From a virus (lineage: Duplodnaviria > Heunggongvirae > Uroviricota > Caudoviricetes), in the IMG/VR virus record IMGVR_UViG_3300046786_000272, positions 14,062 to 78,061 of that record: a stretch of 64,000 bases of DNA. One strand, written 5' to 3'. Shown piece after piece: positions 11,222 through 57,880 of the stretch. Within the stretch, counting starts at the first letter, position 1; every line of letters starts with the position of its first letter. The notes beneath the pieces are model-generated. The model was not told the origin of the DNA, searched no databases, and saw only the letters and a list, made by a program, of their open reading frames with translations. The translations under genes were made by a program, and so were the position numbers.

Positions 11222-11416
11222 ATGAGCGCACAAAATGATATTGAAACAAGCTTGGCAGCATACAATGCTGAAAATGAAAAGTTTAACAAAGGCAATGCGG
11301 CAGCAGGTACACGTGCCCGTAAGGCCCTTGCTGAACTAGCTAAAGCAGTTAAGGCTCGCCGTAATGAAATTACAGCAGAAAAAGCCGCACGTGCAGAAGC
11401 AAAAGCTAAGGCTTAA
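11222..11416 (+). CDS. small Ala/Lys-rich histone-like DNA-binding protein (64 aa)
   Basis: GGAGAAAATT RBS then ATG; KALAELAKAVKARRNEITAEKAARAEAKAKA; GC-rich codons. Confidence 0.55.
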   Translation: MSAQNDIETSLAAYNAENEKFNKGNAAAGTRARKALAELAKAVKARRNEITAEKAARAEAKAKA

Positions 11417-26059: not shown

Positions 26060-26088
26060 TTGACTTTATTGCGTAGGTATGCTACACT
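26060..26088 (+). promoter_or_regulatory. sigma70-like promoter TTGACT-17-TACACT
   Basis: TTGACT 26060-65, TACACT 26083-88, upstream of the uvdE-like gene. Confidence 0.45.
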
Positions 26089-26117
26089 ATATCTATTATT
26101 TATCACTTTGGTCTACT

Positions 26118-27140
26118 ATGCACTCTTTTGACATTACTACTAAACGTATCGGTTTTGCTTGCAAATTCGCTGAAATTAACAAAAAAGGCGAGATTGCTTC
26201 CGTCGAAGGTCTCAACACAGGAGGCACTACAATGGCATGGGCAAAGCGTAACAAGCGTGACGTTGTAGAACAAAAAATCATTGATGTAGCAAAAAGTAAC
26301 ATTCTTGCTACACATGCACTTGTCAAAAAAGTTGCAACACTAGAACCCGAACTGCGTATGGTTCGTATCACAAGTGACATGTTCAGTTTCTACACACATG
26401 ATGACTACAAAGACTTCTGGCAATCAAATGATGTTCAATCTAATCTAGCACGTTGGATGGCACCGATCGGTGAAACAGCACGACAAAACAATGTTCGTCT
26501 TTCGTTTCACCCTGACCAATTTGTAGTTTTAGCAAGCGACCGTGAAGAGGTAGTAAATAAGAGTATCGAAGAATTTGAATATCATGTTGACATGGCAAAA
26601 TTTATGGGCTTTGGTAAACAGTTTCAAGATATCAAAATCAACGTACACATTTCTGGTCGCAAGGGTCCTCAGGGTATCAGAGATGTATTTGGTCGACTAT
26701 CACCTGAGGCACGTAACACACTAACACTCGAAAATGAGGAATACACACATGGACTATCTGACTGCTTATCATTATCTGACCTCGTCCCTACGGTCTTGGA
26801 CATTCACCATAATTGGATTCGTGAGGGAACCTATATTGACTGTAATAGTGACCTTGCTAAAAAGGTTATTGATAGTTGGCGCGGCATTCGCCCTACTATC
26901 CATTACAGCGTATCTAGGGAAGATGTACTTGTTGGCCATTCCGGATCACAGCTACCCGATCATGGTGCGTTGATTGCTGAAGGATACAACAAACAAAAGT
27001 TGCGGGCACACAGTGACTACTTCTGGAATGATGCAGTTAACGATTGGGCATTGACATTTCGTGATAACTTTGATATCATGTGTGAGGCTAAGGGTAAGAA
27101 CTTAGCAAGCTTCAAACTACTTGAACATGCCAAACGATAA
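26118..27140 (+). CDS. uvdE: UV damage endonuclease (UvdE/UVDE family)
   Basis: RLSFHPDQFVVL, KINVHISG, TLTLENEE, DIHHNWI match the UvdE signature blocks (RLSMHPGQF / KINIHVGG / RLTLENDD / DYHHHW). ATG 26118 chosen because the ATG at 26079 lies inside the promoter. Confidence 0.75.
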   Translation: MHSFDITTKRIGFACKFAEINKKGEIASVEGLNTGGTTMAWAKRNKRDVVEQKIIDVAKSNILATHALVKKVATLEPELRMVRITSDMFSFYTHDDYKDFWQSNDVQSNLARWMAPIGETARQNNVRLSFHPDQFVVLASDREEVVNKSIEEFEYHVDMAKFMGFGKQFQDIKINVHISGRKGPQGIRDVFGRLSPEARNTLTLENEEYTHGLSDCLSLSDLVPTVLDIHHNWIREGTYIDCNSDLAKKVIDSWRGIRPTIHYSVSREDVLVGHSGSQLPDHGALIAEGYNKQKLRAHSDYFWNDAVNDWALTFRDNFDIMCEAKGKNLASFKLLEHAKR

Positions 27141-31451: not shown

Positions 31452-31620
31452 GGTAATTTTAGCGTTTGTAGTACTTTTTGTTCTATTTTTTGCGGGCATT
31501 ACGCTAGCCCGAAATATGACAGGAAAAGAAGCACTGGCCTTGACAAAAATGCTAGGGTATAGTATAATTTGTACTGTACTGACAATTGCAGTATTAATTT
31601 CAATCGTTGTAATTTTTTAA
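31444..31620 (+). CDS. small two-TM membrane protein (58 aa), not in ORF track
   Basis: ATG 31444 overlaps the upstream stop; hydrophobic VILAFVVLFVLFFAGI and IICTVLTIAVLISIVVIF. Contains an internal TTGACA-18-TATAAT (31540..31569) that may instead be the promoter of the next gene. Confidence 0.35.
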   Translation: MIKVILAFVVLFVLFFAGITLARNMTGKEALALTKMLGYSIICTVLTIAVLISIVVIF

Positions 31621-31628
31621 GGATACAC

Positions 31629-32441
31629 ATGAAAAACGTTTTTAAACTCTCCGCTATCGTTGCCCTCGTGGCATTGGCAACTGGTTGTACCCGTATTGAG
31701 ACAGGTGAAGTTGGTCTTCGCCGTGGCTTTGATAAACAGGTGTCTGGTCAAGAACTGTTGCCTGGTTCGTTCAATCAAGTGATTGTTGGTGAAGTGCTTA
31801 CATTCCCAATCAAGGATGTTACTGTTAAGGTTGAGGACATGACTCCATTGGCTAAAGACAATAGCACAATGAAAGATTTTGACGCATTGGTTGTTTACAA
31901 CATCAATCAAGCTAATGTCAGTGACCTGTACAATACCAAGAACAAAAGCTTTCACGCCAATCATGGTGGTGATGTTTATTTGATGTACAATTACATTTTT
32001 AACGCAACACGTAATGCTATTTACAAGGCTTCACGTAAATACGAAGCACTGGACATGGCTGATAATCGTCAGTCTATGGAAGCAGATATCCGAGATATCG
32101 TTATCAAAACACTTGCAGAAGAAAAACTTGATGGCATGATTAATGTTAGCCAAGTATTGATTCGTAACATTGTACCAGCTGATGCTATCGTTGCTAGTGC
32201 TAACGAATTGGTCAAAGCCAAGAATGAATTGAAACAAAAAGAAGTTGAAGTTGCAACCGCTCAAGCAGAAGCCCGTCGTATTGCCGCACTGAACAGTAAT
32301 GCAGGTGCTATTCAATACATGGATGCTCAGGCTCGTATGAAGCAAGCTGATGCATCCCTCAAAGTAGCAGAAGCTATTGCATCATTCAAGGGTCAGACTC
32401 TTGTTATTGGTGCTGGCGCTAACGTCAACGTAGGTAAGTAA
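31629..32441 (+). CDS. SPFH/band-7 (stomatin/prohibitin-like) domain lipoprotein
   Basis: MKNVFKLSAIVALVALATGC lipoprotein signal (lipobox LATG|C); coiled AQAEARRIAALN region typical of SPFH. ATG at 31629 with AAGGA RBS preferred over the listed 31569 start. Confidence 0.7.
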   Translation: MKNVFKLSAIVALVALATGCTRIETGEVGLRRGFDKQVSGQELLPGSFNQVIVGEVLTFPIKDVTVKVEDMTPLAKDNSTMKDFDALVVYNINQANVSDLYNTKNKSFHANHGGDVYLMYNYIFNATRNAIYKASRKYEALDMADNRQSMEADIRDIVIKTLAEEKLDGMINVSQVLIRNIVPADAIVASANELVKAKNELKQKEVEVATAQAEARRIAALNSNAGAIQYMDAQARMKQADASLKVAEAIASFKGQTLVIGAGANVNVGK

Positions 32442-44256: not shown

Positions 44257-44282
44257 TTACTGTTTTTACAGGTATAAATAAT

Positions 44283-44326
44283 TCTATACAGTGCCCGTTT
44301 GGGGCTGTATAGAATCTTGCTTTTTT
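44283..44326 (+). terminator. rho-independent terminator-like hairpin (ttctatacag..ctgtatagaa) followed by a T-run
   Basis: 10-bp perfect arms around tgcccgtttgggg, then TCTTGCTTTTTT; lies just upstream of the dnaK RBS. Confidence 0.45.
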
Positions 44327-44339
44327 AAAGGAGAAAAAT

Positions 44340-46184
44340 ATGAGCAAAGTAATCGGTATCGACCTCGGTACAACCAATTCATGTGTAGCCGTTATTGAGA
44401 ACGGAATCCCCAAAGTTATTGAAAACAGTGAAGGTGCTAGAACTACACCCTCTATCGTTGCCTATGCAAACGATGAAATCTTAGTCGGTGCAAGTGCTAA
44501 ACGACAAGCTGTTACTAATCCAAAGAATACTATCTATGCGGCTAAACGTCTAATTGGACGTAAGTTCAAAGAAGACGCTGTACAAAAAGATATTGACTTG
44601 ATGCCCTACAAAATCGTTGAAGCAGGTAACGGTGATGCATGGGTTAAGGTAGGTGATAAGGATCTTGCACCTCCCGGCATCAGTGCAGAAGTCTTGCGTA
44701 AGATGAAAACAACCGCAGAAGATTATCTCGGCCATGAAGTTACTCAAGCTGTTATCACAGTTCCTGCATACTTTAACGATAGTCAACGTCAAGCAACTAA
44801 AGACGCAGGTAAGATTGCGGGTCTTGAAGTATTGCGTATTATTAATGAACCAACAGCGGCAGCATTGGCATATGGTGTTGACAAACAAGACAAGACAGAC
44901 CGCAAAGTTGCAGTCTATGACTTAGGTGGTGGTACATTTGACGTTTCTATCATTGAGATTGCTAACGTTGATGGTGAAAAACAAATTGAAGTACTATCTA
45001 CAAATGGTGATACATTCTTAGGTGGTGAAGACTTTGACCAACGCATCATGGATTTCTTGGTCGATGAATTCAAGAAAGAGTCAGGAGTTGACTTGAAGCA
45101 AGATATGCTTGCATTGCAACGACTGAAAGAAGCTAGTGAAAAAGCTAAGATTGAATTGTCTAGTTCTCAACAAACTAGCGTCAACTTGCCGTACATCACT
45201 GCTGATGCAACTGGTCCAAAGCACATGAACGTTAGTATCAATCGTGCAAAGCTAGAACAGTTGGTTGAAGAGTTGATTCAACGAAGTGTCGGACCTTGCA
45301 AAACAGCAATGAAAGATGCTGGTGTTAGTGCTAGTGATATTGACGAAGTTATCTTAGTCGGTGGTATGACACGTATGCCTAAGGTACAGGAGACAGTTGA
45401 AAAATTGTTTGGTAAGCAACCTCGCAAAGACGTTAACCCTGACGAAGCGGTTGCCGCAGGCGCCGCAATTCAAGGTGCAGTGTTGAGCGGTGATCGTAAA
45501 GACGTATTGTTGCTAGACGTTACTCCACTATCATTGGGTATCGAAACAATGGGCGGTGTAATGACTAAGTTGATTCAGAAGAATACAACTATCCCCACAA
45601 AGCATTCACAAGTGTTTAGTACCGCTGATGACAATCAACCTGCAGTTACTATTAAGGCTTATCAAGGTGAGCGTGAGTTTGTTCAACATAATAAGTTGTT
45701 GGGTGAGTTTAACTTGGAAGGTATTGCACCAGCACGCCGAGGCACACCTCAGATTGAAGTTACACTTGATATTGACGCAAACGGTATCATGCATGTATCA
45801 GCTAAAGACAAGAATACAGGCAAAGAAAACAAGATTACTATCAAGAGTAATAGTGGATTGACTGATGCAGAAATTGAGCAAATGATTAAAGATGCTGAAT
45901 TGAATGCAGAAGAAGATAAGAAGAAGCGTGAAATCGTAGAGACTAAAAACTCCGCTGAATCACAGATTCATTCTATCCGCAAAGACCTTGAAGAAACTAC
46001 TGTTTCCCAAGATGTTAAAGATAAGATTGAACAAGCTATTACAGAAGTTCAAACTGCTATCAGCACTGAGGATAAGGAACAGATTACCCAAAAGTTGAGC
46101 GAGTTGTTTGTTGCGGCACAACCATTAATGGAAGCTAAAAACAAACCTTCTGACGAAACGGTAGTTGATGCCGAAGTAGTATAA
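44340..46184 (+). CDS. dnaK: Molecular chaperone DnaK (Hsp70)
   Basis: [23 protein letters not shown], 614 aa, bacterial-DnaK-like throughout. Confidence 0.95.
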
Positions 46185-46245
46185 CCGTTATTGTTTACAA
46201 CGTTATCATGGTAGCGTACAATTAATATAATTAAAAGGAGCTACT

Positions 46246-46776
46246 ATGGTAACAATCGTTAAACATGAATGGCATCAACATGATCGCCAATATGCAATTG
46301 AGCTTGATGAACAATTGCTTCAAGAAATCTATCCCGATTTAGATGAGGATGAGATTGCACAGAAACTTGCAGACATTGAATCAGGTGAAGTTGACTACGA
46401 AGAAGTACTCAATGATGCATATGACAATGATGTAGAGATTGAGTGGGACTTTCAGTATGATGATTGTTGGACTGACCGTAAAGGTGGTTACGATGTTACA
46501 TACGAGCTAGGTGATGAATCTAGTTGGGTCACTCCTGATACTCCGCCTGAACCTACACACAAGTGTACCAAGTGTAAGTGGAAAGGTCAGGAATACGATG
46601 CTGAATGGCAGTGGGAAGACAGTGAAGGTAACGAATATGATGAAGCAAAACATGTTTGCCCTATGTGCGATTCAAAATTAGAATTAACTGAACATGGTGT
46701 TAGCGAAGAAAACGCTAAGAGGAAACGCATGGCAGAAATAGAAGCTATGTTTACCGAAGAAGAAGAGGAGAACTGA
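46246..46776 (+). CDS. highly acidic Trp-rich protein with CxxC..CxxC zinc ribbon (176 aa)
   Basis: D/E-rich; CTKCKW..CPMCDSK. Confidence 0.5.
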   Translation: MVTIVKHEWHQHDRQYAIELDEQLLQEIYPDLDEDEIAQKLADIESGEVDYEEVLNDAYDNDVEIEWDFQYDDCWTDRKGGYDVTYELGDESSWVTPDTPPEPTHKCTKCKWKGQEYDAEWQWEDSEGNEYDEAKHVCPMCDSKLELTEHGVSEENAKRKRMAEIEAMFTEEEEEN

Positions 46777-46777
46777 A

Positions 46778-47320
46778 ATGGCTGAATGGAGTGTAAAACC
46801 TACATGGAAGAAATCAATCTTAGAACGTAACTATCTACACAAAGATGGTCAAACGATAATGATTGAAACAGGTTGGCGTTGGGGTGAGTTTACTGTTTAT
46901 ACAGACGATGACACACCACCTAATCTAGAGGCAGGTGTAGATATCTATGACTGTGGATATGAAAGTGAATTAGTTGAAACAACTGATGGTTGCTGGGAAG
47001 AACACGACTTTGACGAGTGTGATGAAGAAACACAAGAATGGTTAGAAGAATTCTTTGACGAAGGTAACAGCTGGCTTGACCTAGAAGAACACGGTTGGCA
47101 TCAAGGTGACTGTGAAATGATTATTGACTGTGATATGGAAATCACACGAATGGACGGTGACGGAGACGAAGAACCTATCATTACTGGCATGCAGGATGAA
47201 GGTGAAGAAATCAAAGAAGCTTTGAAACTAGAGCCTAATGCTCAGTGGCCATTCTCAAACAGTGATTTTGTAGAAACTGCTAAGTGGCCCTTTGATAAAC
47301 CTAAAGAAGGTAGCAAATGA
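46778..47320 (+). CDS. highly acidic Trp/Cys-containing protein (180 aa)
   Basis: D/E-rich (..EEHDFDECDEETQEWLEEFFDEGNSWLDLEEHGW..). Confidence 0.5.
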   Translation: MAEWSVKPTWKKSILERNYLHKDGQTIMIETGWRWGEFTVYTDDDTPPNLEAGVDIYDCGYESELVETTDGCWEEHDFDECDEETQEWLEEFFDEGNSWLDLEEHGWHQGDCEMIIDCDMEITRMDGDGDEEPIITGMQDEGEEIKEALKLEPNAQWPFSNSDFVETAKWPFDKPKEGSK

Positions 47321-47532
47321 TTCCGAGTGAACTAGTCGGAAAATCATACACATTTGAAGATGGTAACAAGATTGAAGTAGTTCAAGTTAAGCTACGAGAC
47401 AGTGATTACGATGGATTAGTTCCGTGGGTCACTTATCATGTTACTCAAGGAAGAGGCATGCCACAGAAATTAGTGCTCCCTATCAGCGAGTTTGGTGCTG
47501 TATATGGTCACTTATTTGGCATGGAAGACTGA
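47317..47532 (+). CDS. hypothetical protein (71 aa)
   Basis: ATGA overlap. Confidence 0.45.
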   Translation: MIPSELVGKSYTFEDGNKIEVVQVKLRDSDYDGLVPWVTYHVTQGRGMPQKLVLPISEFGAVYGHLFGMED

Positions 47533-47542
47533 TAAATATAGA

Positions 47543-49126
47543 ATGTTCAAAAAATATACAAGTTTTTCTAATCTAACTTTACTAGTGGCATTGTCACTAA
47601 GTTCAGTTGCGGCTTACTACAGTATCATAGGTTTAACCGCTATCTTTGCAGGTGCGGTTATTCCTGTCATCATTATGGGTTCTATCCTCGAAGTAGGAAA
47701 GATCACTACTACTGTTTGGCTACGTAAGTATTGGAATCGTGCTGGTTGGGTACTCAAACTTTACCTAGTACCTGCTGTTGTTGCATTGGCACTACTAACC
47801 TCTATGGGTATCTTTGGTTTCTTAAGTAAAGCACACATGGAAACAGGTATCACATCAGGTGATAGCCAATCTAAACTTGCATTGTATGATGAAAAGATTA
47901 AAACGCAACGTGACAATATTGAGTTAGCACGTAAAGCACTAACTCAAATGGATGCACAAGTTGACCAAATGCTAGGTCGTACTGATAGTGACAAGGGAGC
48001 AGAACGTGCTGTTGCCATTCGTAAGCAACAGGCTAAAGAACGTGCATCATTACAAAATGATATCGGTCTAGCTCAAAAAGAAATAGCAAAGTTAAATGAA
48101 GAACGTGCTCCTATCGCCGCAGAGAATCGTAAGATTGAAGCAGAAGTAGGTCCAATCAAGTATATTGCCGCATTGATTTACGGTGATAATGCTGATGCGA
48201 ACATGCTTGAAGCCGCAGTACGTTGGGTTATTATTTTGCTTGTTGTGGTATTTGATCCACTTGCTATCGCACTTGTACTAGCGGCTAACGCAAGCAAAGA
48301 GTGGGACAAAGAAGAACCTGAGGAAGAAAATAAGCCGGATGCTTGGGTTGCTGACGTAGGTGAAAAGCCAACTATAGAAGAAATAGAACCTGACATTGAT
48401 GAAGGCAACAAGCTGATTGATGAGTTGGAAAAAGAAGTACCTGAAGTTATTATACCTGAGGTCATCGTTGAACCCATGAAGTTTAATGATCCGGGTGAGC
48501 ACCCTGATGATTTTGTTGAGTATGAAGAAGTTAAGCCAGAAGTAAAAACAGAAGATTCTGAGATTGAATGCTTAAAATGCGGTACTGTATTAGTTGATAT
48601 CCCTAGAATAGGTTTGTATTGTCCAAACACCGAATGTGGCGTTGAGATTGAATTAGAAGAAGCTGAACCTGAGATTGAACCAGTTGAAGCTGTGCCAGAA
48701 ATCGTTACAGAGAATGTGACTGTTGAAGTTCAGGAAACAAAACCTTTTGAAGAACATGGTGATTATGTCCTCTATGAGGGTAAGCACATGCACCGAGATG
48801 CTCTTAAGAGCATGAAGCCCGAATTGTTTAGACTAACTGCTGATTCTACTACCAGTATCAAGACAAGTTTTGGAACAGATTTTCCCAAAATAGCTACCAA
48901 AGGTGATATTAGGGTCCGTGTAGATGTGCTACCAAACCGTGTATACAAGTTTGACGGTAGAAAATGGATAGAAATCAACAAGGAACAGTCGGATACATAT
49001 TTGTACGACCAAGAATACATCAAGTTTTTAATTGAGCGTATAGAATTGGGCGAATACGATATTGACTTATTATCTGATGCAGAAAAACAACAAGTTGAAG
49101 ATTACTTAAGTAACCAAAAAAGTTGA
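47543..49126 (+). CDS. membrane protein with 3-4 TM helices, coiled-coil, acidic E/P/V-rich repeats and a zinc ribbon
   Basis: TM segments (LLVALSLSSVAAYYSIIGL, VIPVIIMGSIL, LVPAVVALALLTSMGIFGF, VIILLVVVFDPLAIALVLAA); CLKCG..CPNTEC; EAEPEIEPVEAVPEI repeats. Internal Met start chosen. Confidence 0.55.
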   Translation: MFKKYTSFSNLTLLVALSLSSVAAYYSIIGLTAIFAGAVIPVIIMGSILEVGKITTTVWLRKYWNRAGWVLKLYLVPAVVALALLTSMGIFGFLSKAHMETGITSGDSQSKLALYDEKIKTQRDNIELARKALTQMDAQVDQMLGRTDSDKGAERAVAIRKQQAKERASLQNDIGLAQKEIAKLNEERAPIAAENRKIEAEVGPIKYIAALIYGDNADANMLEAAVRWVIILLVVVFDPLAIALVLAANASKEWDKEEPEEENKPDAWVADVGEKPTIEEIEPDIDEGNKLIDELEKEVPEVIIPEVIVEPMKFNDPGEHPDDFVEYEEVKPEVKTEDSEIECLKCGTVLVDIPRIGLYCPNTECGVEIELEEAEPEIEPVEAVPEIVTENVTVEVQETKPFEEHGDYVLYEGKHMHRDALKSMKPELFRLTADSTTSIKTSFGTDFPKIATKGDIRVRVDVLPNRVYKFDGRKWIEINKEQSDTYLYDQEYIKFLIERIELGEYDIDLLSDAEKQQVEDYLSNQKS

Positions 49127-49132
49127 TGTATA

Positions 49133-49157
49133 ATTGATAGTATGTTACACTATCAAT
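49133..49157. promoter_or_regulatory. perfect 9-bp inverted repeat ATTGATAGT-N7-ACTATCAAT in intergenic region
   Basis: Seen directly; overlaps TTGATA / TAATAT promoter-like hexamers upstream of the 49183 gene. Confidence 0.3.
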
Positions 49158-49182
49158 ATCGTTAACTACTAATAGGTTATTT

Positions 49183-49812
49183 ATGAATATCCGTCTCTCT
49201 GTACTCGCATTGTCACTTGTTTTGGGTGCATGTGCTACAAAAACTACCAACGATTCTGAACCAATCAGAAATCAGAAGTTGTCAACTTCTTTTAAAGAAG
49301 ACACCATCCATATTGAAACAGATTGCACTTGGTACAAGCCTTGGAAGAGTGAATGTGAAGTGGTATCTATTACTACAGTAGGTAGTGCTACTACTAACGG
49401 CAACACTGTTAACAATCGCAACACAGCCCTCACTAGAGCTAAGGACAAAGCACTTGCTAACGTTGCTCACTTTATGAGTGAAGAAGTTTCTAGTAATCGT
49501 GTATCTACTACACTGGCTAAGAACGTTGAGAAGGCAAGTGATCGCCTTAAGTCTAGAGCTAAAGAAGGTGAAGTTGTTGAAATGTCTGACAAGGATGCAG
49601 AAAAAGACACTAACTTTACTGTGCGTGAAAATAGCAATGACACTGCATTTAGTCTTGCTGAAAACATTCGTGTGAATGCACGTGCAAGACTGCGTGGATT
49701 TATCCCTGTTAAACAAGAAGTATCCGGGCCTCAAGAAGTTACAGTAACTATGCGTTGGACTAAAGATAGCGACAATACAGCTAGCCAACTCCGCAAACGT
49801 TTCGGTAACTAA
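49183..49812 (+). CDS. lipoprotein (209 aa)
   Basis: MNIRLSVLALSLVLGACATKT lipobox (LGA|C). Confidence 0.6.
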   Translation: MNIRLSVLALSLVLGACATKTTNDSEPIRNQKLSTSFKEDTIHIETDCTWYKPWKSECEVVSITTVGSATTNGNTVNNRNTALTRAKDKALANVAHFMSEEVSSNRVSTTLAKNVEKASDRLKSRAKEGEVVEMSDKDAEKDTNFTVRENSNDTAFSLAENIRVNARARLRGFIPVKQEVSGPQEVTVTMRWTKDSDNTASQLRKRFGN

Positions 49813-49813
49813 T

Positions 49814-50791
49814 ATGCTCAAACTACTTTTTGTAGTAGTATCTTTATTCATATCTAACGCCTTCGCCAATGATTACATCCGTGTAGTCGGTGAGGGCGCT
49901 ACACTTGAATCTGCTAAAGAAAACGGCTTTCGTGAAGCTGTGCAAATTCGTGCCGGCACTATTGTGCTTAGTGAAAGAGAAAGTACATTACAGCGATTAG
50001 AACGTGATGATATCAACGTCTATAGTGCTGGTTATGTACGAGACTATAAAATCAATAACGTTAATACATTCAATGGCAAATACAGTGTAACTATGGATGT
50101 GTTAATTGCTGATAGCAGACTGTTTAATCAATTGCTATCTACCGGCAAGTCTACTACTGAAATAGACGGGGCAGTTGCAGGTACAAGTTATAAGTCTTTC
50201 ATCAATCAACGAAACAAAGGTGATGTTGTTTTGAGTAGAGTATTAGCTACATATCCGCAACATGCATTCAACATTAAACAAGAAGCACCTAGCATAACAA
50301 CCGATCAATATCGCAATACATTGTTACGAGTTCCTTATCAACTTAGTTGGAACTATGATTACGTGGTAGCATTCAGTGAAGCCATGAAGATGTTTGATGA
50401 TAATAGGTTTGGTAGATTTACTCCTGCTCCCAGTAACGTAGTTGTTATGGGAAAAAATCCTAGTAATTTCCTCATAGGATCTAGCACTCAGTATAGATTT
50501 AATGATATAATCATGCTTGACAGAATTAAAGATTCAGTCACAGGATCAAGAGAAGTTAGACTAATGCTATCTCTACGTGATGACGCCAATAAAGTGATGC
50601 TTAAAACATGTTCTGCTCCGATGTTAGTTAACGGCGGACCTAGTTTTTATAGCATCGGTGATCCTAAGTACTTTGTTATTTATGGTAATACTACTGAACA
50701 AGGTGTATTCCAAACAAATCTCAAAGATCGTACCGTGATAGACCGAGCTAGAACCGTTGAGTTGTCTGTTGTAGCAGAAGCAAATTGTTAA
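49814..50791 (+). CDS. secreted protein with signal peptide (325 aa)
   Basis: MLKLLFVVVSLFISNAFA|ND signal peptide. Confidence 0.55.
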   Translation: MLKLLFVVVSLFISNAFANDYIRVVGEGATLESAKENGFREAVQIRAGTIVLSERESTLQRLERDDINVYSAGYVRDYKINNVNTFNGKYSVTMDVLIADSRLFNQLLSTGKSTTEIDGAVAGTSYKSFINQRNKGDVVLSRVLATYPQHAFNIKQEAPSITTDQYRNTLLRVPYQLSWNYDYVVAFSEAMKMFDDNRFGRFTPAPSNVVVMGKNPSNFLIGSSTQYRFNDIIMLDRIKDSVTGSREVRLMLSLRDDANKVMLKTCSAPMLVNGGPSFYSIGDPKYFVIYGNTTEQGVFQTNLKDRTVIDRARTVELSVVAEANC

Positions 50792-50827
50792 AAATACTGC
50801 AGGAAAAATAAAAAGATAAATTATAAT

Positions 50828-52024
50828 ATGTCAAATGAAAATAAACTAAACCATTGTTCCTTTTGTGGTAACCACAAAGATATAGTAAAGAAACTTATCG
50901 TAAGTGATAACGTTGCTATTTGCAGTGACTGCATTGAACAATGCACTCAACTTATAACTGATGACAGTTCTGTAGTAGAGTCAGAAGGACCCAAACAAAA
51001 CTACGATCCATCTGATATCAAGAACTTCTTAGACTTGCACATCATTGGTCAAGACCATGCTAAAATGGTTCTTAGCGTAGCAATCGCTAATCATTATAAA
51101 CGAATCACACATCCCCCTAAAGATTTAGAAATTCAAAAGGGTAATGTATTGTTGATTGGGCCTACTGGTAGCGGTAAGACATTGCTTGCTAAAACAGTAG
51201 CAAAGTACCTTAACGTTCCTTTCGTAGTAGCTGATGCAACTAGCTTGACAGAAGCAGGTTACGTAGGTGATGACGTTGAATCTATGATTAGTATGCTTCT
51301 CACTAACGCCGGCGGTGATGCTAAACTAGCAGAAAAAGGTATTGTTTTCATTGATGAAGTTGATAAGATTGCACGTAAAGGTGAATCCGCAAGCTTGACA
51401 CGTGATGTATCAGGTGAAGGTGTTCAACAAGCATTGTTGAAATTAGTTGAGGGCACGGTATGTCGTGTGCCAGCAGGTGGTGGCAGAAAGCATCCATCAG
51501 GTGAAATGATTGAAATCAACACAAAAAATATCTTATTCATTGCAGGTGGTGCATTTGTTGGCTTGAAAGATATTATCTCTAGTAGACATTCAGGATCTAG
51601 TATTGGATTTGGTGCAGAGATTAAAGACAAGAAAAAAGAAGGTGACTTGGGTCTAGTATCACCTGATGACCTCACTAAGTTTGGTATGATTCCTGAATTG
51701 ATCGGTCGTTTTACTACTGCGGTTAGTGTAGCAAACTTGACCAAAGAAGAACTTATCAAGGTACTTACTTCTGTTAAAAATAATTATATTGACCAATATA
51801 AGTATTTGTTTAGTATCGACCAGATTGATTTGCAATTCAGCGATGATGCATTAGAACAAATGGTTGACAACTGTATGAAGTTGAATACTGGTGCTCGTGG
51901 ACTTCATACTGAGATTGAACGTGCTTTGATGCCGCACATGTACAATACTAAGAAGTATCGTGAAAGCGAAATCAAAGTGGTAAATATTACACAAGCGGGT
52001 GTAGTAGAACCAAAAGCACTGTAA
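50828..52024 (+). CDS. clpX: ATP-dependent Clp protease ATP-binding subunit ClpX
   Basis: N-terminal C4 zinc finger CSFCGNHKD..CSDCIEQC; Walker A GPTGSGKTLLAKTVA; ClpX-like throughout. Confidence 0.9.
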   Translation: MSNENKLNHCSFCGNHKDIVKKLIVSDNVAICSDCIEQCTQLITDDSSVVESEGPKQNYDPSDIKNFLDLHIIGQDHAKMVLSVAIANHYKRITHPPKDLEIQKGNVLLIGPTGSGKTLLAKTVAKYLNVPFVVADATSLTEAGYVGDDVESMISMLLTNAGGDAKLAEKGIVFIDEVDKIARKGESASLTRDVSGEGVQQALLKLVEGTVCRVPAGGGRKHPSGEMIEINTKNILFIAGGAFVGLKDIISSRHSGSSIGFGAEIKDKKKEGDLGLVSPDDLTKFGMIPELIGRFTTAVSVANLTKEELIKVLTSVKNNYIDQYKYLFSIDQIDLQFSDDALEQMVDNCMKLNTGARGLHTEIERALMPHMYNTKKYRESEIKVVNITQAGVVEPKAL

Positions 52025-52125
52025 CCTAAATACTAGAATTTTTTGCGTATTTTTAGTATAATAAATACGTATGTAGATGCCGATGGTCGGGTCTACTAAG
52101 TCATCTTGCTTAATAGGAGAAAAAT

Positions 52126-52569
52126 ATGACAAATCAACTAACCCTTCGTTCCTTAGACATTCCGTCTATTCACAAATTTGCAGTAGGTTTTGACAATCTA
52201 TTTGATGAAATGTTGCGTATCAATGCACAACAAGGCTCTACTAACTATCCACCATTCAACATTGTTCAAATCAATGAAGATGAGTATCAGATTAGTTTAG
52301 CAGTCGCTGGATTCGGGCCTGACAATATTGATGTTACTAAAGAAGGTAACTATCTTGTTATTGAAGGTACACCTGTATTGCCACTAGACGAAATCAATTA
52401 CCTACACAAAGGAATCAGCACACGTAGTTTCCGTCGTGAGTTCAAACTTGCTGACCATGTGGATATTGAGAATTGTAATCTTGAATTGGGTATCCTCTCA
52501 ATTAATTTAAAGAGAACAATTCCTGAAGAACAGAAGCCCAAGAAAATTGCAATTAACTACAATAAATAA
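52126..52569 (+). CDS. Small heat-shock protein (Hsp20/IbpA-like, alpha-crystallin domain)
   Basis: 147 aa; YQISLAVAGFGPDNIDV...GILSINLKR pattern typical of Hsp20. Confidence 0.65.
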   Translation: MTNQLTLRSLDIPSIHKFAVGFDNLFDEMLRINAQQGSTNYPPFNIVQINEDEYQISLAVAGFGPDNIDVTKEGNYLVIEGTPVLPLDEINYLHKGISTRSFRREFKLADHVDIENCNLELGILSINLKRTIPEEQKPKKIAINYNK

Positions 52570-52594
52570 TATAATGTAGTTTGAAGGAAACACT

Positions 52595-52900
52595 ATGTCA
52601 AAAACAGAAACTAAACTTAAAATCAAGCCAATCACAACACTTGCTGAACCACCATTGTTTAAGATTATCTACTTCAACGATGATGTGACTAGCGTGGAAT
52701 TCGTGGTAACTTCGTTGATTGATTACTTTAATTATACGAATGATACTGCGGCTGATATCACTAACAGCATCCATAATACTGGTAGTGCAGTTGTTGCTGT
52801 TTTGCCATACGAAATAGCAGAGCAAAAAGGAATTGAGGTTACACTTGACGCACGTAGTCAGGGATTCCCGCTACAAGTTAAGGTAGAAGCAGAAGCTTAA
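52595..52900 (+). CDS. clpS: ATP-dependent Clp protease adaptor ClpS
   Basis: PPLFKIIYFNDDVTSVEFVVTSLIDYF aligns with ClpS PxxYKVxLxNDDYTPMEFV. Confidence 0.8.
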   Translation: MSKTETKLKIKPITTLAEPPLFKIIYFNDDVTSVEFVVTSLIDYFNYTNDTAADITNSIHNTGSAVVAVLPYEIAEQKGIEVTLDARSQGFPLQVKVEAEA

Positions 52901-53640
52901 ATCTTTATTTCTATTCTCTTAGCCCAATAGGGCTTTCTCTTGTAATAAGAGTTGTTCAAGTAGTTGATGCCATTGATAACGGTGTCAACTACTTTTCCAT
53001 ATGTTCCATATACCCAATGTGATACTTTCTTTTCAGTATCACTAGTTAATATCAAGTCCAATGAGAGTTGTGAGTCTATTGCGCTAGGCTCTTCACCAAA
53101 ATATAAGTCTACACCAGGCACTGAGTGTGAGACTATCAATATCTTTTTAACGTCCAAGTGTCTTTGGAGTCGTTCTATAGTAGACTTCAAATAATACAAA
53201 TCCTCGTATCTTTGATTGTCAATAGCTATTTCTGTTTTCATGTCCGAGGTAGCTATTTCCCCGTACCATCCATTTGCGCCAACGATTGCGATTCCATCAA
53301 CTATAACTACATGATGATGTAGCATCACTACCTTCTGTAGATTTTTACTGATTCTAAAAATGTCATCAGTGCGTTGATTTATATCAGTGGCGCCCTCGTA
53401 TTCTAGGGTTCCTATAGTGTAAAATACACCTTGATAAAACCTAGATAAATGCGCTAAGGTCTGGTGTATAGTCCTTAGGTCGTTACTGATATTACCAGCA
53501 ACTATGCAATACAAGCTTGTAGCCTTCCCCTCCCAGTTAAACGAGTCTTCCGGTGATAGGTTTAGGTCACTTATTATGTCAAAACCAATAGTCATAAAGG
53601 CATGATAACAGGTTTCCCTGTTATCATGATTACTTAGCAA
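52897..53640 (-). CDS. hypothetical protein (247 aa); degenerate metallophosphoesterase-like motifs
   Basis: IISDLNL (DxH-like, H replaced by N) and VAGNIS; weak. Confidence 0.4.
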   Translation of the reverse strand: MLSNHDNRETCYHAFMTIGFDIISDLNLSPEDSFNWEGKATSLYCIVAGNISNDLRTIHQTLAHLSRFYQGVFYTIGTLEYEGATDINQRTDDIFRISKNLQKVVMLHHHVVIVDGIAIVGANGWYGEIATSDMKTEIAIDNQRYEDLYYLKSTIERLQRHLDVKKILIVSHSVPGVDLYFGEEPSAIDSQLSLDLILTSDTEKKVSHWVYGTYGKVVDTVINGINYLNNSYYKRKPYWAKRIEIKI

Positions 53641-53902
53641 CAGTCATTTTTGGCTTTTTTGCTGTCCTAGCTTTTGGCTTTGCGGGCGCTTTCGCTTTGG
53701 CAGGTGCCTTAGCTTTTGGCTCAGCTTTCTTTTTAGTAGCAGTTATTGCAGGGGTAGCTGGTGTAGCTTCCACAACAGGTGCTTCTACCTTTACAGCTGG
53801 TGCTGCCTCTACTACAGGGGCTACTTCTACCTTATAAGGTACTTCGGCTACTGTCTCTTGTTTTGTGGATAATCCCAACAAACGCTTAAAAAAGTCTAAC
53901 AT
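53630..53902 (-). CDS. Ala/Pro/Lys-rich low-complexity histone-H1/AlgP-like protein (90 aa)
   Basis: AAPAVKVEAPVVEATPATPA...KAKAPAKAKAPAKPKARTAKKPKMTVAK. Confidence 0.5.
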   Translation of the reverse strand: MLDFFKRLLGLSTKQETVAEVPYKVEVAPVVEAAPAVKVEAPVVEATPATPAITATKKKAEPKAKAPAKAKAPAKPKARTAKKPKMTVAK

Positions 53903-53983
53903 TTTTATCTCCTAAACATATATTTACTCTAGGGCTAAAACATAGCATTTTTTCTGCAATGCGCCCACTTAAATACATTTATT

Positions 53984-54475
53984 ATGTTCCTAAGAAATAA
54001 CCTCAAAGACTTGATGCAGGAAGAGCTACCTAGTATAGCCTACCAAAAACGTCTGTATTATAGGACAGATTATGATGAAGTAGTCAAGCTTTATCGTATG
54101 CTAAACAAGCAAGTATTCAACAATAAATTGATTATGCCCGAGATTGAGGTTATGGGACGTTGCAGAAAGTACTGGGGCATGTGCTACGGCTCAACAACAA
54201 TGCCCACAAAAACTAAGAGTTTTTGCAAGATACGTATGATGGATAAGTGGTATTGCAAACAATGGCTTATCACAGTATTAGCACATGAAATGTGCCATCA
54301 ATATCAGTGGGATGTTGAGGGATTGAAAAGACTATATCAAGGGAAAGAACCGATAATGAGTCATGGACCTAGTTTCTTTATCTTTAGGGATAAATTAAAG
54401 AAACTAGGTATTCCTTTAAAGAGCGCACATAGCAAGCGCAAATGGTTTAAACATCAAAATCTATTTAAGTGCTAA
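53984..54475 (+). CDS. SprT-like zinc metalloprotease domain protein
   Basis: VLAHEMCHQYQWD (HExxH) in SprT-like context. Confidence 0.55.
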   Translation: MFLRNNLKDLMQEELPSIAYQKRLYYRTDYDEVVKLYRMLNKQVFNNKLIMPEIEVMGRCRKYWGMCYGSTTMPTKTKSFCKIRMMDKWYCKQWLITVLAHEMCHQYQWDVEGLKRLYQGKEPIMSHGPSFFIFRDKLKKLGIPLKSAHSKRKWFKHQNLFKC

Positions 54476-54493
54476 AACGCATAAATACACATT

Positions 54494-55993
54494 ATGCGTG
54501 AATATCTAGACCTAATCCAAATCCTTTCAGAAGCCCCAGTTGGCTTAAGTGCCAACGAAATCAAAAAATATGACTGGCGCTTTAAAAAATTCATTGAATA
54601 CATTACTCAAAAAAAGCCCTTTACAAAAATTGATGGTAGTGAAGTTATCGCTGACCCTAGAGAAGCAAGACGTTTCCAACAACTGTTTAATAATGGACAG
54701 TTTGGTGGTGCATTAAAGATTCGTTTAAGTGATGGTGACGAGATAGCATTAAGTCAATTGGCTAAGACAGGTGACTTTGGTGGCGCCGCAGTAGCCGCAG
54801 GACAGGATGCTAGTCAAGCAGGTAAAGAAGGATTAGTAGTTAAACCTAGTCAAATTGGTATCTGTGATAAGAATATCCCGGCAGAAGATTTGTATGAAGT
54901 TATTGAATCTAACGCCGCATTAGCTAGTACAGACTATGGACAAGTTGTTCAACTATTAGCTACTATGATTGTTTCAGGTGATGCAGTGATGTTGCCGCCC
55001 GAGTATCAAGGAAAAGAAAAAGAAAAAGTTCGCAAAGCTATCGTTGACTACGCAGGCGAATACTTAGGTGTACTAGCACTAATTTACAATCGTAGTCGTT
55101 TCCCTAGAAAAGCAGAATTTCAAAAGTGGATGGGGGCAGATACTAATCAGTTAACAGTTAACTTCCCCTTGAAGGCTAATACTAACTTAGCAGATAGTTA
55201 CGCTACTGTTACTAACAGTGCAACTAATCACACACTAAACATCTCTAGTAAAGGCACAGGTGGTGGAGCCGCTCCTGCTATCTCAGGATTAAAAGTTCCT
55301 GACTATATCAGAAATGATCCTAACTATGAAAATGCTATTCAGTTCATTGATATTTGTCAGAAATTAGGAACTGTTCCTCAAGCGTTCGCGGCTATGGATT
55401 TGATTTTTCAAGTTAATCCAAACGCAATAAACAAGAAATGGCACAAGTTCTTACCTTTCTCACAGAAGAACCCTAAATTAGCTACACTAGCTAAACAAAG
55501 TTTAGACTTGAAAAAGCAACGTGTTGACCAACCACTTCCAGCAAAGTATCAGTCTTTGTTCAACGATATCAATTCTCCTAGCGCCAGCGACGGTGGTAAA
55601 TTAATTTATTGTATTAAACGTGAAGTAGCAGATGCTATGAACAGTCGTGATGCTATCCCTGAGTTTAAAGATGCCATCATTCAGATTTTGGAAATGAACT
55701 TTATTCAACAGTATTGTGATTATAAGAGTGGTCAACTAATGTTCGCTACGCAATGGCCTGCAAAGCTTGATGGTAAGATTAGTGTTGAAAACAAGTCTAG
55801 TGCTATTGACCCAACAGCAGGTGGTTTCAGCTTTAAACTTGGCCGCACTGACGATTCAGTAAGCGCAGAGCCCGGAGAAGAGCCAGTAGACGGATTAGAA
55901 AACGAACCCGATCTAGCGACTGCATCTAAAGAGATTGCAGAACCTACGAAGACTAAAGAAAAAGAAACTGGTCAACGTAAAAAGAGAAAATAA
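54494..55993 (+). CDS. hypothetical protein (499 aa) with basic C-terminal tail
   Basis: Long ORF; C-terminal KTKEKETGQRKKRK. Confidence 0.55.
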   Translation: MREYLDLIQILSEAPVGLSANEIKKYDWRFKKFIEYITQKKPFTKIDGSEVIADPREARRFQQLFNNGQFGGALKIRLSDGDEIALSQLAKTGDFGGAAVAAGQDASQAGKEGLVVKPSQIGICDKNIPAEDLYEVIESNAALASTDYGQVVQLLATMIVSGDAVMLPPEYQGKEKEKVRKAIVDYAGEYLGVLALIYNRSRFPRKAEFQKWMGADTNQLTVNFPLKANTNLADSYATVTNSATNHTLNISSKGTGGGAAPAISGLKVPDYIRNDPNYENAIQFIDICQKLGTVPQAFAAMDLIFQVNPNAINKKWHKFLPFSQKNPKLATLAKQSLDLKKQRVDQPLPAKYQSLFNDINSPSASDGGKLIYCIKREVADAMNSRDAIPEFKDAIIQILEMNFIQQYCDYKSGQLMFATQWPAKLDGKISVENKSSAIDPTAGGFSFKLGRTDDSVSAEPGEEPVDGLENEPDLATASKEIAEPTKTKEKETGQRKKRK

Positions 55994-55995
55994 GT

Positions 55996-56035
55996 ATCCA
56001 TAATAGTTGATTTTGTATTGTTATGGATGTACAAT
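55996..56035 (+). promoter_or_regulatory. promoter TTGATT-17-TACAAT for clpP, with 8-bp inverted repeat ATCCATAA..TTATGGAT flanking the -35
   Basis: TTGATT 56007-12, TACAAT 56030-35; IR arms at 55996-56003 and 56021-56028. Confidence 0.45.
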
Positions 56036-56058
56036 ACAGTTTTAACTAAAGGATCCTT

Positions 56059-56646
56059 ATGAGTCTAGTACCAATCGTTGTAGAACAAACCGCTAAAGGC
56101 GAACGCAGTTATGACATTTACAGTCGTCTACTGCGTGACCGAGTCATTTTGCTTGAGGGTGAAGTTCACGACCAAATGGCAAACTTGATTGTTGCCCAAT
56201 TGTTATTCCTTGAATCAGAGGATGCAGACAAAGATATTTCAATGTACATTAATAGCCCAGGTGGTAGTGTTACTGCAGGTATGGCAATCTATGATACAAT
56301 GCAATTCATCAAACCAAACGTTCATACTATCGTAATGGGACAAGCATGTTCAATGGGTTCACTACTTGCACAAGCAGGTGCTCCAGGTAAACGTTTTATG
56401 TTGCCTAACGCACGACACATGATTCATCAACCAAGTGGTGGCGCACGTGGTATGCAATCTGACATTGAAATCAGTTATCGAGAAATCACATTCTTGAAAA
56501 AACGACTGACTGAAATCTATGTTAAGCACAACAGTGCAGGAAAAACATACGAAGATTTTGAACGTGATATGGATCGTGACAAATTCATGAGTGCTGAAGA
56601 GGCATTGGCATACGGCTTGATTGACAAGATCGTTGAAAAACGTTAA
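56059..56646 (+). CDS. clpP: ATP-dependent Clp protease proteolytic subunit ClpP
   Basis: [24 protein letters not shown]...[10 protein letters not shown]...MIHQPSGG: near-canonical bacterial ClpP with Ser/His/Asp triad context. Confidence 0.9.
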
Positions 56647-57320: not shown

Positions 57321-57349
57321 TTGACAATAAATGGATTTGGGCTTATAAT
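57321..57349 (+). promoter_or_regulatory. repeated early-type promoter P3: TTGACAATAAATGGATTTGGGCTTATAAT plus conserved leader
   Basis: TTGACA 57321-26, TATAAT 57344-49. Confidence 0.6.
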
Positions 57350-57851: not shown

Positions 57852-57880
57852 TTGACAATAAATGGATTTGGGCGTATAAT
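57852..57880 (+). promoter_or_regulatory. repeated early-type promoter P4: TTGACAATAAATGGATTTGGGCGTATAAT
   Basis: TTGACA 57852-57, TATAAT 57875-80. Confidence 0.6.

Follow-up and report, generated by a model that had tools for sequence, protein, structure and literature searches.

The stretch of DNA analysed here, 64,000 nucleotides (nt) long and termed the window, covers positions 14,062 to 78,061 of IMG/VR record IMGVR_UViG_3300046786_000272, a virus of the Caudoviricetes. Within 12 kb it carries genes for the chaperone DnaK, the unfoldase ClpX, a small heat-shock protein (sHsp, encoded by hsp20), the adaptor ClpS and the proteolytic subunit ClpP, and a groES gene is found elsewhere in the window (Table 1). 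The six genes had been predicted from the letters alone; each of them occupies an exact open reading frame (ORF) at the predicted position and has Pfam support. The NCBIfam curated cut-offs, which were applied to these six genes, divide them into two groups, with DnaK, ClpX and ClpP above cut-offs and the sHsp, ClpS and GroES below every equivalog cut-off, as expected for divergent family members. The other called window ORFs of at least 45 amino acids (aa) were searched with Pfam.

Table 1. Genes and leader features of the chaperone and Clp genes, with positions in the window
Feature	Position	Strand	Basis
GroES-like co-chaperonin, 97 aa	11419..11712	+	Pfam Cpn10, 92.7 bits (vs 21)
dnaK TATAAATA box, match to T4 late-promoter consensus, 60 nt 5' of start codon	44273..44280	+	Read from sequence
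dnaK leader hairpin I, stable GC-cored stem-loop	44281..44315	+	Minimum free energy -23.5 kcal/mol, z-score -4.76
dnaK leader hairpin II, anti-Shine-Dalgarno UCUUGCUU vs AAGGAGA, bulged G, ROSE-like	44315..44334	+	Predicted fold; covariance model R1, 43.3 bits, E 1.4e-8
DnaK (Hsp70), 614 aa	44340..46184	+	Pfam HSP70, 863 bits
ClpX unfoldase, 398 aa	50828..52024	+	Pfam zf-C4_ClpX and AAA_2
hsp20 AATAAATA late-promoter-like box, 59 nt 5' of start codon	52060..52067	+	Read from sequence
hsp20 leader hairpin I, GUAGAUGCCGAUGGUCGGGUCUAC	52073..52096	+	Predicted fold, covariation; matches hairpin I of the ROSE_3 consensus
hsp20 leader hairpin II, UCUUGCU vs AGGAGA, bulged G, ROSE-like	52104..52120	+	ROSE_3, 21.1 bits; R1, 35.8 bits
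IbpA-like small heat-shock protein, 147 aa	52126..52569	+	Pfam HSP20, 60 bits
ClpS N-degron adaptor, 101 aa	52595..52900	+	Pfam ClpS, 79 bits (vs 23)
Terminator-like hairpin just after clpS, between convergent genes	52921..52934	+	Consensus scan alone, weak
SprT-like zinc metalloprotease, HEMCH motif	53984..54475	+	Pfam SprT-like, 29.5 bits
ClpP proteolytic subunit, 195 aa	56059..56646	+	Pfam CLP_protease, 272 bits

DnaK scores 977 against a cut-off of 648 with NF001413 and 912 against 822 with TIGR02350. Its residues 1–599 align with Escherichia coli DnaK, including the ATPase, the linker and the DnaJ-contact motifs (R167 region), and the protein is a bacterial Hsp70 with the full architecture of nucleotide-binding domain, linker, substrate-binding domain and lid. 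ClpX passes its NCBIfam equivalog (NF003745, 509 versus a cut-off of 359), and its alignment with E. coli ClpX contains the C4 zinc finger, the Walker A and B motifs, the GYVG pore loop, the RKH motif, the IGF loop for docking to ClpP, and the GARG motif with the sensor-II arginine. These motifs are conserved in 16 sequences of the family, except for the RKH histidine (10/16), the RKH lysine (14/16) and the first GARG glycine (11/16). In ClpP, Ser98 and His123 are invariant in 122 sequences, the catalytic Asp is aligned in the alignment with Protein Data Bank structures, and the N-terminal axial region is conserved there too. ClpP passes the subfamily model NF001368 (315 versus 249) and narrowly misses the equivalog TIGR00493 (298.6 versus 308.6). 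All family copies of ClpP start at MSLVP and so have no propeptide of the E. coli kind. Because every motif needed is present in both proteins, ClpX and ClpP are predicted to form a self-contained phage AAA+ protease. They are the only pair that would be self-sufficient within the window, and the description of the gene set as a near-complete proteostasis toolkit, given in the original prediction, is thus overstated.

ClpS reaches at best 68 against an NCBIfam equivalog cut-off of 149. Its nearest solved structure is that of Agrobacterium tumefaciens ClpS2 (4yjm), and the ClpS-ClpA complexes 1mbx and 1r6q are matched as well. The residues of the N-degron pocket (N34, D35, T38 and H66 in E. coli numbering) are invariant in 52 family sequences that range from 42 to 94% identity; the ClpA-docking residues are equally constrained, with E79 present in all 52 and K84 in 51. 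The gatekeeper M40 is replaced by V in the window, and by V or I in the subclade to which the window belongs. ClpS proteins dock on the N-domain of ClpA or ClpC, not on ClpX. The phage ClpS would therefore work through a ClpA-type partner, likely the ClpA of the host, since no ClpA or ClpC gene is present in the window. Of the earlier proposal that ClpS redirects ClpAP and ClpXP towards N-degron substrates, the ClpAP part agrees with the conserved docking residues and the ClpXP part does not hold. The best NCBIfam model for the sHsp is IbpA, at 121 bits against a cut-off of 212, and its sequence contains the motifs YPPFN and AVAGF and a C-terminal I-x-I motif (IAI), which characterise it as a presumed IbpA-like protein that is not an equivalog. 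GroES, a Cpn10 member by Pfam, has a best NCBIfam score of 91.4 against 136, and the window contains no GroEL gene.

The loci of relatives that were compared with the window are designated by L numbers (L003, L005, L011 etc.). In the window's subclade the gene order is dnaK, six unannotated genes, clpX, hsp20, clpS, two genes in reverse orientation, the sprT-like gene, one variable gene and clpP. More distant members, with DnaKs that are ∼78–84% identical, have a compact core, and one contig carries clpX, the gene for ribosomal protein S21, dnaK, hsp20 and clpS in succession. Where the flanking sequence suffices, 37 of 40 DnaK loci include Hsp20 and 36 of 39 include ClpS. The 12-kb span is thus composite. 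What is conserved as a unit is ClpX-(S21)-DnaK-Hsp20-ClpS, to which ClpP lies close in some subclades. The six genes between dnaK and clpX (46246-50791) encode two very acidic proteins, a 71-aa ORF, a 544-aa DUF4407-like membrane protein, a lipoprotein and a secreted protein, and they are mostly absent from distant relatives in which hsp20 directly follows dnaK. The SprT-like gene between clpS and clpP is kept at the same position in L003 and L005-L011; SprT-like peptidases have been noted in the group 2.2 jumbo phages (PMC7824862).

Several further observations concern the genes of this block. One of the acidic proteins between dnaK and clpX carries two CxxC pairs. The 176-aa and 180-aa proteins encoded downstream of dnaK were considered as co-chaperones and rejected; they have no Pfam or PHROG match and are absent where hsp20 directly follows dnaK. 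The S21 gene lies directly 3' of clpX in many relatives (L005:5039-5257, L008:6181-6396 and L015:9682-9906, the last with a Pfam score of 67.5 bits), and is missing from the corresponding part of the window (52025-52125) and from L011. A 90-aa protein on the reverse strand (53630-53902) combines an N-terminal amphipathic segment with a C-terminal AKAPAKPK repeat tail that is histone-H1/AlgP-like, and its position between clpS and the sprT-like gene is kept in relatives. Immediately upstream of groES, a histone-H1-like ORF of 64 aa (11222-11416), rich in Lys and Ala, is preceded by a strong ribosome-binding site, AAGGAGAAAATTATG.

That the DNA derives from a phage is confirmed by its family B DNA polymerase, which is closest to those of Sinorhizobium phage Phosso (49.6% identity), Agrobacterium phage Atu_ph07 (46.9%) and the RaK2 group (44%). 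The window is thus part of a jumbo phage related to Atu_ph07, Phosso and RaK2; jumbo phages of the Atu_ph07/RaK2 type constitute 'group 2.2' of Iyer et al. (PMC7824862). Other replication and nucleotide genes recognized by Pfam are an ATP-dependent ligase, a 5'-3' exonuclease and a dCMP deaminase; auxiliary genes comprise FolE/QueD/QueE-like genes, a superoxide dismutase, UvdE, an SPFH protein, a ferredoxin and the SprT-like peptidase. Among 50,697 phage records none is nearly identical to the 12-kb block, and at the DNA level the window has no near relative among cultured phages. In metagenomes, relatives of ClpP fall into more than 120 clusters at 88–96% identity, on contigs reaching 363 kb, and relatives of DnaK that are 83–100% identical to that of the window are found on contigs of 343–363 kb. 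IMG/VR adds 551 DnaK relatives on contigs of up to 383 kb, with DnaKs 77–84% identical in that set. An ENA contig of 358,771 bp, from which L011 is taken, keeps the window's gene order from DNA ligase up to and including the gene for a 499-aa protein upstream of clpP.

The window DnaK is thus 77–100% identical to the phage-family copies. Bacterial DnaKs, for which a species scan worked from peptide patterns, are at most 75% identical among the matches listed (one genome per species), the best being those of Thiomonas, Tibeticola, Polynucleobacter and further members of the Burkholderiales, an order classically placed in the betaproteobacteria. In an unrooted, distance-based neighbour-joining tree of 80 phage and 79 bacterial sequences, the 80 phage DnaKs form one clade in 100 of 100 bootstraps, with the Burkholderiales as the nearest bacteria. 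The single phage clade, the distance from the bacterial matches listed and the divergence of the phage copies among themselves, down to 74%, together indicate one old acquisition from a betaproteobacterial lineage, which would have been followed by vertical descent.

Transfer-messenger RNAs (tmRNAs) of the betaproteobacterial, two-piece type are found near dnaK in two relatives (L052:2143-2487 and L037:11384-11808; RF01850, 119 and 106 bits versus a gathering score of 84). This points to the same host group, the Burkholderiales, as the DnaK tree. The tag encoded by the tmRNA of L052 ends in LAA, a ClpX degron. The two tmRNAs hint at a Burkholderiales host and at a link between the phage tmRNA and ClpXP. 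In the window itself neither ARAGORN nor Rfam reveals a tmRNA.

The dnaK and hsp20 genes share a leader which precedes these two genes alone among the window ORFs. Its plan comprises an (A/T)ATAAATA box at -59/-60, a GC-cored hairpin (hairpin I), the sequence UCUUGCUU, a gap of 3–6 nt, the Shine-Dalgarno sequence (A)AGGAGA and, after a further 5 nt, the AUG start codon; UCUUGCUU and the Shine-Dalgarno sequence can pair to form a second hairpin (hairpin II). The TATAAATA box of dnaK is the late-promoter consensus of T4, KVP40 and cyanophages (PMC2984593). A NATAAATA box is present in 56 of the 57 distinct DnaK leaders of the family. For Hsp20 a late-promoter-like box is found in 18 of 51 leaders, and it is missing from the inspected loci in which hsp20 comes directly after dnaK. 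By their sequence and position, the TATAAATA and AATAAATA boxes would serve as late promoters and direct late transcription. No sigma-32-like promoters are found upstream of the chaperone genes inspected.

The leader is specific for heat-shock genes. Over the entire window, covariance model R1 recovers the dnaK and hsp20 sites alone, at 43.3 and 35.8 bits, with the next best match at 10.6 bits; both sites are part of the R1 seed, and the informative result is the lack of other matches. In 1.55 Mb of family DNA the motif has 169 matches, of which 84 belong to dnaK, 78 to hsp20 and one to a groES gene that follows dnaK, the remaining six being copies of a single in-gene site. It has no match in 590 kb of bacterial dnaK loci and two in 936 kb of loci from other jumbo phages. 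A scan of IMG/VR with an exact pattern yields at least 122 sites; among the matches listed, the downstream gene encodes Hsp20 in 107 cases (two of them cut), DnaK in eight and GroES in one. The same design is found 5' of hsp20 in Phosso, in Pelagibacter phage HTVC008M and in the cyanophages P-RSM1 and S-TIM5, and in all 46 distinct hsp20 leaders of T4-like cyanophages that were retrieved by protein similarity alone. The groES gene of the window has no ROSE-like leader, unlike that of L072.

The region of the dnaK leader at 44263-44342 also gives a weak match to the Rfam motif 'freshwater-2' (19 bits versus a gathering score of 49.9), the consensus of which ends in AAGGAGAAAAcAAAUG. Freshwater-2 is an orphan metagenomic RNA, and the motif might have been derived from leaders of the dnaK kind.

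Hairpin I shows compensatory changes at six of its eight base pairs in 53 leaders, and the z-scores of the two window leaders are -2.2 and -4.8. Hairpin II corresponds to the signature of ROSE elements, in which U(U/C)GCU pairs imperfectly with the Shine-Dalgarno sequence and a U·G wobble pair lies beside a bulged G (PMC3669281, PMC11342760). At both window leaders UCUUGCU(U) stands opposite (A)AGGAGA, and the register with the bulged G is the unconstrained minimum-free-energy fold of the window dnaK leader at 25–42 °C and also that of the family consensus. According to nearest-neighbour calculations, the consensus hairpin II has an energy of approximately -6 to -8 kcal/mol at 4 °C, -4.4 kcal/mol at 25 °C and -2.4 kcal/mol at 37 °C. 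The Rfam family ROSE_3 (RF02523) is the top match on the window hsp20 leader, with 21.1 bits and an E-value of 0.019 in 201 nt, and it is the match with the lowest E-value in a search that included the P-RSM1 leader (21.8 bits). When hairpin II is slid through alternative registers, the true register pairs best. Lineages with another Shine-Dalgarno sequence have a matching anti-Shine-Dalgarno sequence, i.e. CCAC[G]CUU with AAGGUGG in leaders of the S-TIM5 type and CCUC[G]CUUU with AAAGGAGG in L489.

We tentatively propose that a two-hairpin, ROSE-like thermometer behind a late promoter controls the translation of hsp20 in T4-like cyanophages, pelagiphages and jumbo phages, and that it was copied onto the captured dnaK and, once, onto groES. 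The ROSE-type U(U/C)GCU sequence would cover the Shine-Dalgarno sequence, and heat or another destabilising input would open the hairpin, upon which translation would rise. Various observations weigh against thermosensing. Hairpin II is weak, at about -2.4 kcal/mol at 37 °C, and has no G-C clamps as are present in the Pseudomonas elements, whose energies lie between -4.1 and -7.6 (PMC3669281); the set-point of a thermometer built on it would therefore be lower. The ROSE_3 scores amount to about half of the gathering score of 43, no Rfam family reaches its gathering threshold in the window, and none of 13 relatives has a ROSE match at threshold. The fraction of paired cells in hairpin II is 88.3%, compared with 86.3% ± 0.9 in shuffled alignments, six of 500 of which reach the true value. 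The covariation score of hairpin II is not above that of the shuffles, so that formal covariation falls short of significance, since the two arms hardly vary. Finally, about a quarter of the leaders have an A instead of the bulged G.

These same properties leave room for an alternative in which the leader is not a thermometer but either a general leader of late mRNAs, in which a 5' stabilising hairpin is combined with a strong ribosome-binding site, or a site at which a translational regulator of the phage binds, with UCUUGCUU kept for the binding of a protein or a small RNA. The almost invariant arms of hairpin II, in which covariation cannot discriminate, the weak nearest-neighbour energies and the Rfam ROSE scores under threshold are all compatible with such a leader. 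However, a general late leader would not be restricted to heat-shock genes as the element is, both in the 1.55 Mb of family DNA and among the matches listed from IMG/VR. Moreover, its sequence equals the ROSE signature opposite the Shine-Dalgarno sequence, the anti-Shine-Dalgarno sequence changes along with its partner in the S-TIM5-type and L489 leaders, and the true register pairs best. On balance we judge the alternative unlikely, while giving it appreciable weight.

Taken together, the genes are interpreted, with moderate confidence, as a module for protein quality control that belongs to the phage itself and has been inherited vertically within a large, uncultivated jumbo-phage family. 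What the analysis shows is the identity of the genes, the conservation of catalytic and docking residues, the gene order in relatives, the phylogeny, and a leader that is specific and conserved; the partners, the late timing, the thermosensing and the substrates of the module are inferred from these. The phage ClpXP would be its degrading component; ClpS would feed N-degron substrates to a ClpA-type unfoldase, or retune such an unfoldase. The IbpA-like sHsp would hold unfolding proteins in a recoverable state and DnaK would refold them, relying on a J-protein and GrpE of the host or of phage genes outside the window, and GroES would cap the GroEL of the host, as T4 gp31 does. The dnaK and hsp20 genes would be co-regulated through their leaders, such that both proteins are made together, probably late and probably in a temperature-dependent manner. 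The most likely role of the module would then be to fold, hold and clear a large late load of phage proteins, with proteolysis of N-degron and ClpX-degron substrates as a second arm. That the module appears to be old and adapted to the phage argues for a dedicated role in infection. On the other side of the balance, no Pfam match to DnaJ, GrpE, GroEL, ClpA or ClpB is found in the called window ORFs of at least 45 aa, in agreement with the original prediction, which had noted the absence of the first four of these; the 12-kb span is not one operon in the window's subclade, as six unrelated genes part dnaK from clpX; and a scan of the window for sigma-70 promoters and terminators reveals no enrichment over shuffles.

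A role in host takeover or counter-defence would assign other targets to the same proteins. ClpXP and ClpS would then destroy defence proteins or regulators of the host, or retune the host ClpAP, and the chaperones would neutralise chaperone-dependent defences. Such a role is compatible with one in quality control, and it agrees with the strong constraint on the N-degron pocket and ClpA-docking surface of ClpS, with the retention in ClpX of the N-terminal zinc finger, which binds adaptors and substrates, and with the ClpX degron at the end of the tmRNA tag of some relatives. Similar functions have been put forward in the literature: according to a suggestion of Iyer et al., peptidases with a patchy distribution, ClpP and ClpS among them, act against the host (PMC7824862), and a role of this kind is proposed for phage heat-shock proteins in the moraphage paper (PMC12619734). 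However, bulk folding is the better fit to the late-promoter-like boxes of dnaK and hsp20 and to the pairing of an sHsp with DnaK, and the module is kept across very different hosts, whereas counter-defence genes usually turn over fast. As the principal function of the module, we consider counter-defence rather improbable.

In the original prediction, the nearly canonical gammaproteobacterial look of ClpP and DnaK had suggested a recent capture from a host. DnaK, ClpX and ClpP do score as canonical bacterial proteins and DnaK groups beside the Burkholderiales, as might be expected for genes taken fresh from the current host and still host-like. The nearest DnaK donors, the Burkholderiales, do not agree with a gammaproteobacterial source, and in the phylogeny that had been called for the phage copies form one clade, with all phage copies being closer to the window DnaK than any of the bacterial matches listed. 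For ClpP, the copies of Phosso (70.7% identity) and Atu_ph07 (67%) are nearer than any bacterial copy from that search, the best of which reaches 65.5%, although the margin is small. ClpS, the sHsp and GroES are below the equivalog cut-offs and therefore too divergent for a recent transfer. In addition, the dnaK leader is absent from the bacterial dnaK loci searched, no sigma-32-like promoter accompanies the chaperone genes inspected, and the base composition (GC) is even over the whole window. A recent capture is thus very improbable.

An assignment of ClpP as a head-maturation (prohead) protease is suggested by databases. The best PHROG for the window ClpP is phrog_94, 'head maturation protease', and its Atu_ph07 homologue bears the same label in RefSeq (NC_042013). 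These labels are misleading, because the protein passes a cellular ClpP model and scores 101.6 against a cut-off of 120 with NF045542, the NCBIfam model for ClpP-related head-maturation proteases. It is 63–66% identical to bacterial ClpPs over its full length, with a conserved N-terminal axial region, and the co-occurring ClpX has the IGF docking loop. No portal, scaffold or capsid genes are found within 10 kb of clpP in the window or in relatives L005-L010, and structural genes have no Pfam match in the called window ORFs. The doubt about a prohead protease that was expressed in the original prediction is thereby borne out, and such a function for ClpP is highly unlikely. A bacterial fragment mis-assembled into phage DNA, to which the host-like look of three genes lends itself and nothing further, is practically dismissed by independent assemblies from JGI, ENA, NCBI and Logan that repeat both the junctions and the gene order, by the phage genes that flank and interleave the block, and by the uniform composition.

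The nearest cultured relatives by DNA polymerase (47–50% identity), Atu_ph07 and Phosso, both have a cellular-type ClpP (67–71%) and a ClpX (48%), and their clpP genes are without structural neighbours. In Phosso, ClpS and Hsp20 were found by search, with hsp20 and clpS 1 kb apart; for Atu_ph07, ClpS and Hsp20 are reported in the literature (PMC6102473, PMC7824862). In contrast to the clustered arrangement in the window family, the genes of these phages are dispersed over 470–490 kb. The DnaK search listed no DnaK for them, whereas the window family has DnaK behind a ROSE-like leader, and their hosts are alphaproteobacteria, whereas the window family points to the Burkholderiales. Atu_ph07 encodes a protein annotated as ClpB and elsewhere as ClpA (AUZ95251.1, L014:30758-32743), which has two AAA+ modules and an apparent coiled-coil insert and contains neither a Clp_N domain nor an IGL/IGF loop. 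As such it looks like a ClpB-type disaggregase with a truncated N-terminus and not like a ClpA that binds ClpP, and without the Clp_N domain and the IGL loop it would therefore not serve ClpS. With this protein as a query for ClpB/ClpA-like ATPases in IMG/VR, none of the 80 best loci fits the window family by contig name, GC or tetranucleotide profile. The 'ClpA gp292' and 'DnaJ gp293' of Atu_ph07 appear to be the MoxR-vWA pair of Iyer et al., as judged from gene positions and PMC7824862.

A full-length Hsp70 in a very large phage is also known from Lak megaphages, other huge phages and moraphages, and moraphages encode DnaJ, Hsp20 and a ClpA-like ATPase as well (PMC12619734). The moraphage DnaK derives from Flavobacteriales and is described as recent (PMC12619734), whereas the window DnaK groups with Burkholderiales and is old. 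The DnaKs of Lak and other huge phages are 50–57% identical to that of the window and represent independent acquisitions. In T4, gp31 is a phage lid protein that acts on host GroEL in the folding of the capsid protein. The window phage would similarly provide the lid only, with no GroEL gene in the window; unlike gp31, which is structurally analogous, its protein is a true Cpn10 member. Prohead proteases of the ClpP family share with the window ClpP the ClpP/crotonase-like serine protease fold family and one PHROG group; the window protein differs in being of the full-length cellular type, with a cognate ClpX and a position outside a head-gene module.

The closest counterparts of the leader are the ROSE-like thermometers of Pseudomonas ibpA (RF02523, PMC3669281). 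These are likewise located 5' of an IbpA-type sHsp gene in a leader of ∼60 nt, with a stable GC-rich hairpin I of similar sequence, GAUGCCGA..UCGGGUC, and a hairpin II in which U(U/C)GCU faces the Shine-Dalgarno sequence with a U·G wobble and a bulged G. The phage leader differs in its scores below the Rfam gathering threshold, in the absence of G-C clamp pairs, in its weaker hairpin II, in its additional occurrence 5' of dnaK and once of groES, and in having a phage late-type box instead of a sigma-32 promoter. The hsp20 genes of T4-like cyanophages and HTVC008M encode homologous sHsps (35–43% identity) behind a leader of the same design, and in HTVC008M an S21 gene is located near hsp20, as in relatives of the window. 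Unlike the window phage, these phages have genomes of 150–180 kb, and they are in neither the DnaK nor the ClpS search listing. Cyanophage Hsp20 has been proposed to aid capsid maturation (PMC3037559), and no leader element is mentioned for it in the searchable papers.

Clp proteins, sHsps, Hsp10 and J-proteins of jumbo phages have already been described (PMC6102473, PMC7824862), and the present set extends a pattern already known from jumbo phages of the Atu_ph07/RaK2 lineage and from further huge phages, whose genomes include genes for Clp proteins and chaperones. What sets the window family apart is the clustering, the complete ClpXP with a constrained ClpS, and the old, Burkholderiales-derived DnaK; a conserved cluster of ClpXP, constrained ClpS and an sHsp-DnaK pair is thus present in an uncultivated family of very high abundance. 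What may be new is the ROSE-like leader of the phage chaperone genes. A connection of cyanophage hsp20 with an RNA thermometer was not found in the searchable literature, which is no proof of novelty. If the leader is a thermometer, it would represent the first ROSE-type class described in viruses and would give the phage a temperature-gated heat-shock regulon, in which the supply of chaperones for virion assembly is tuned to water temperature. It would also provide a testable function for hsp20, a long-unexplained core gene of cyanophages, and, by sensing temperature, would link phage productivity to temperature in lakes and oceans.

Some further genes of the relatives and of the window deserve mention. 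In L005, genes with Fe-S_biosyn, eIF-1a (IF1-like) and rubrerythrin domains are located ∼6–9 kb downstream of clpP (L005:16338-19529). In L069, a CsgG-like lipoprotein (177 bits), from the family of curli secretion channels and with a fused SH3 domain, is encoded 4 kb downstream of dnaK (L069:15858-16985). The window itself encodes a PP-loop ATPase (497-1090), a GTP cyclohydrolase I (11780-12460), a PTPS/QueD-like protein (15314-15817) and a QueE-like protein (18844-19692), the last assigned from its sequence without a Pfam match; the combination suggests a 7-deazaguanine (preQ0-type) pathway, which might serve to modify DNA. Another, separate gene, at 16581-17663, encodes a radical-SAM/SPASM protein. 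Other genes encode an Fe/Mn superoxide dismutase (23434-23988, reverse strand), a UvdE UV-damage endonuclease (26079-27140) and an SPFH/Band-7 lipoprotein (31569-32441). Bacterial SPFH proteins (HflK/C) modulate the FtsH protease, and the lipoprotein could be another link to proteostasis. Just downstream of the chaperone/Clp block, ahead of small ORFs, the window contains two sigma-70 promoters that match the consensus perfectly at 12 of 12 positions (TTGACA, 17 nt, TATAAT; 57321-57349 and 57852-57880), which is consistent with early transcription by the host RNA polymerase.

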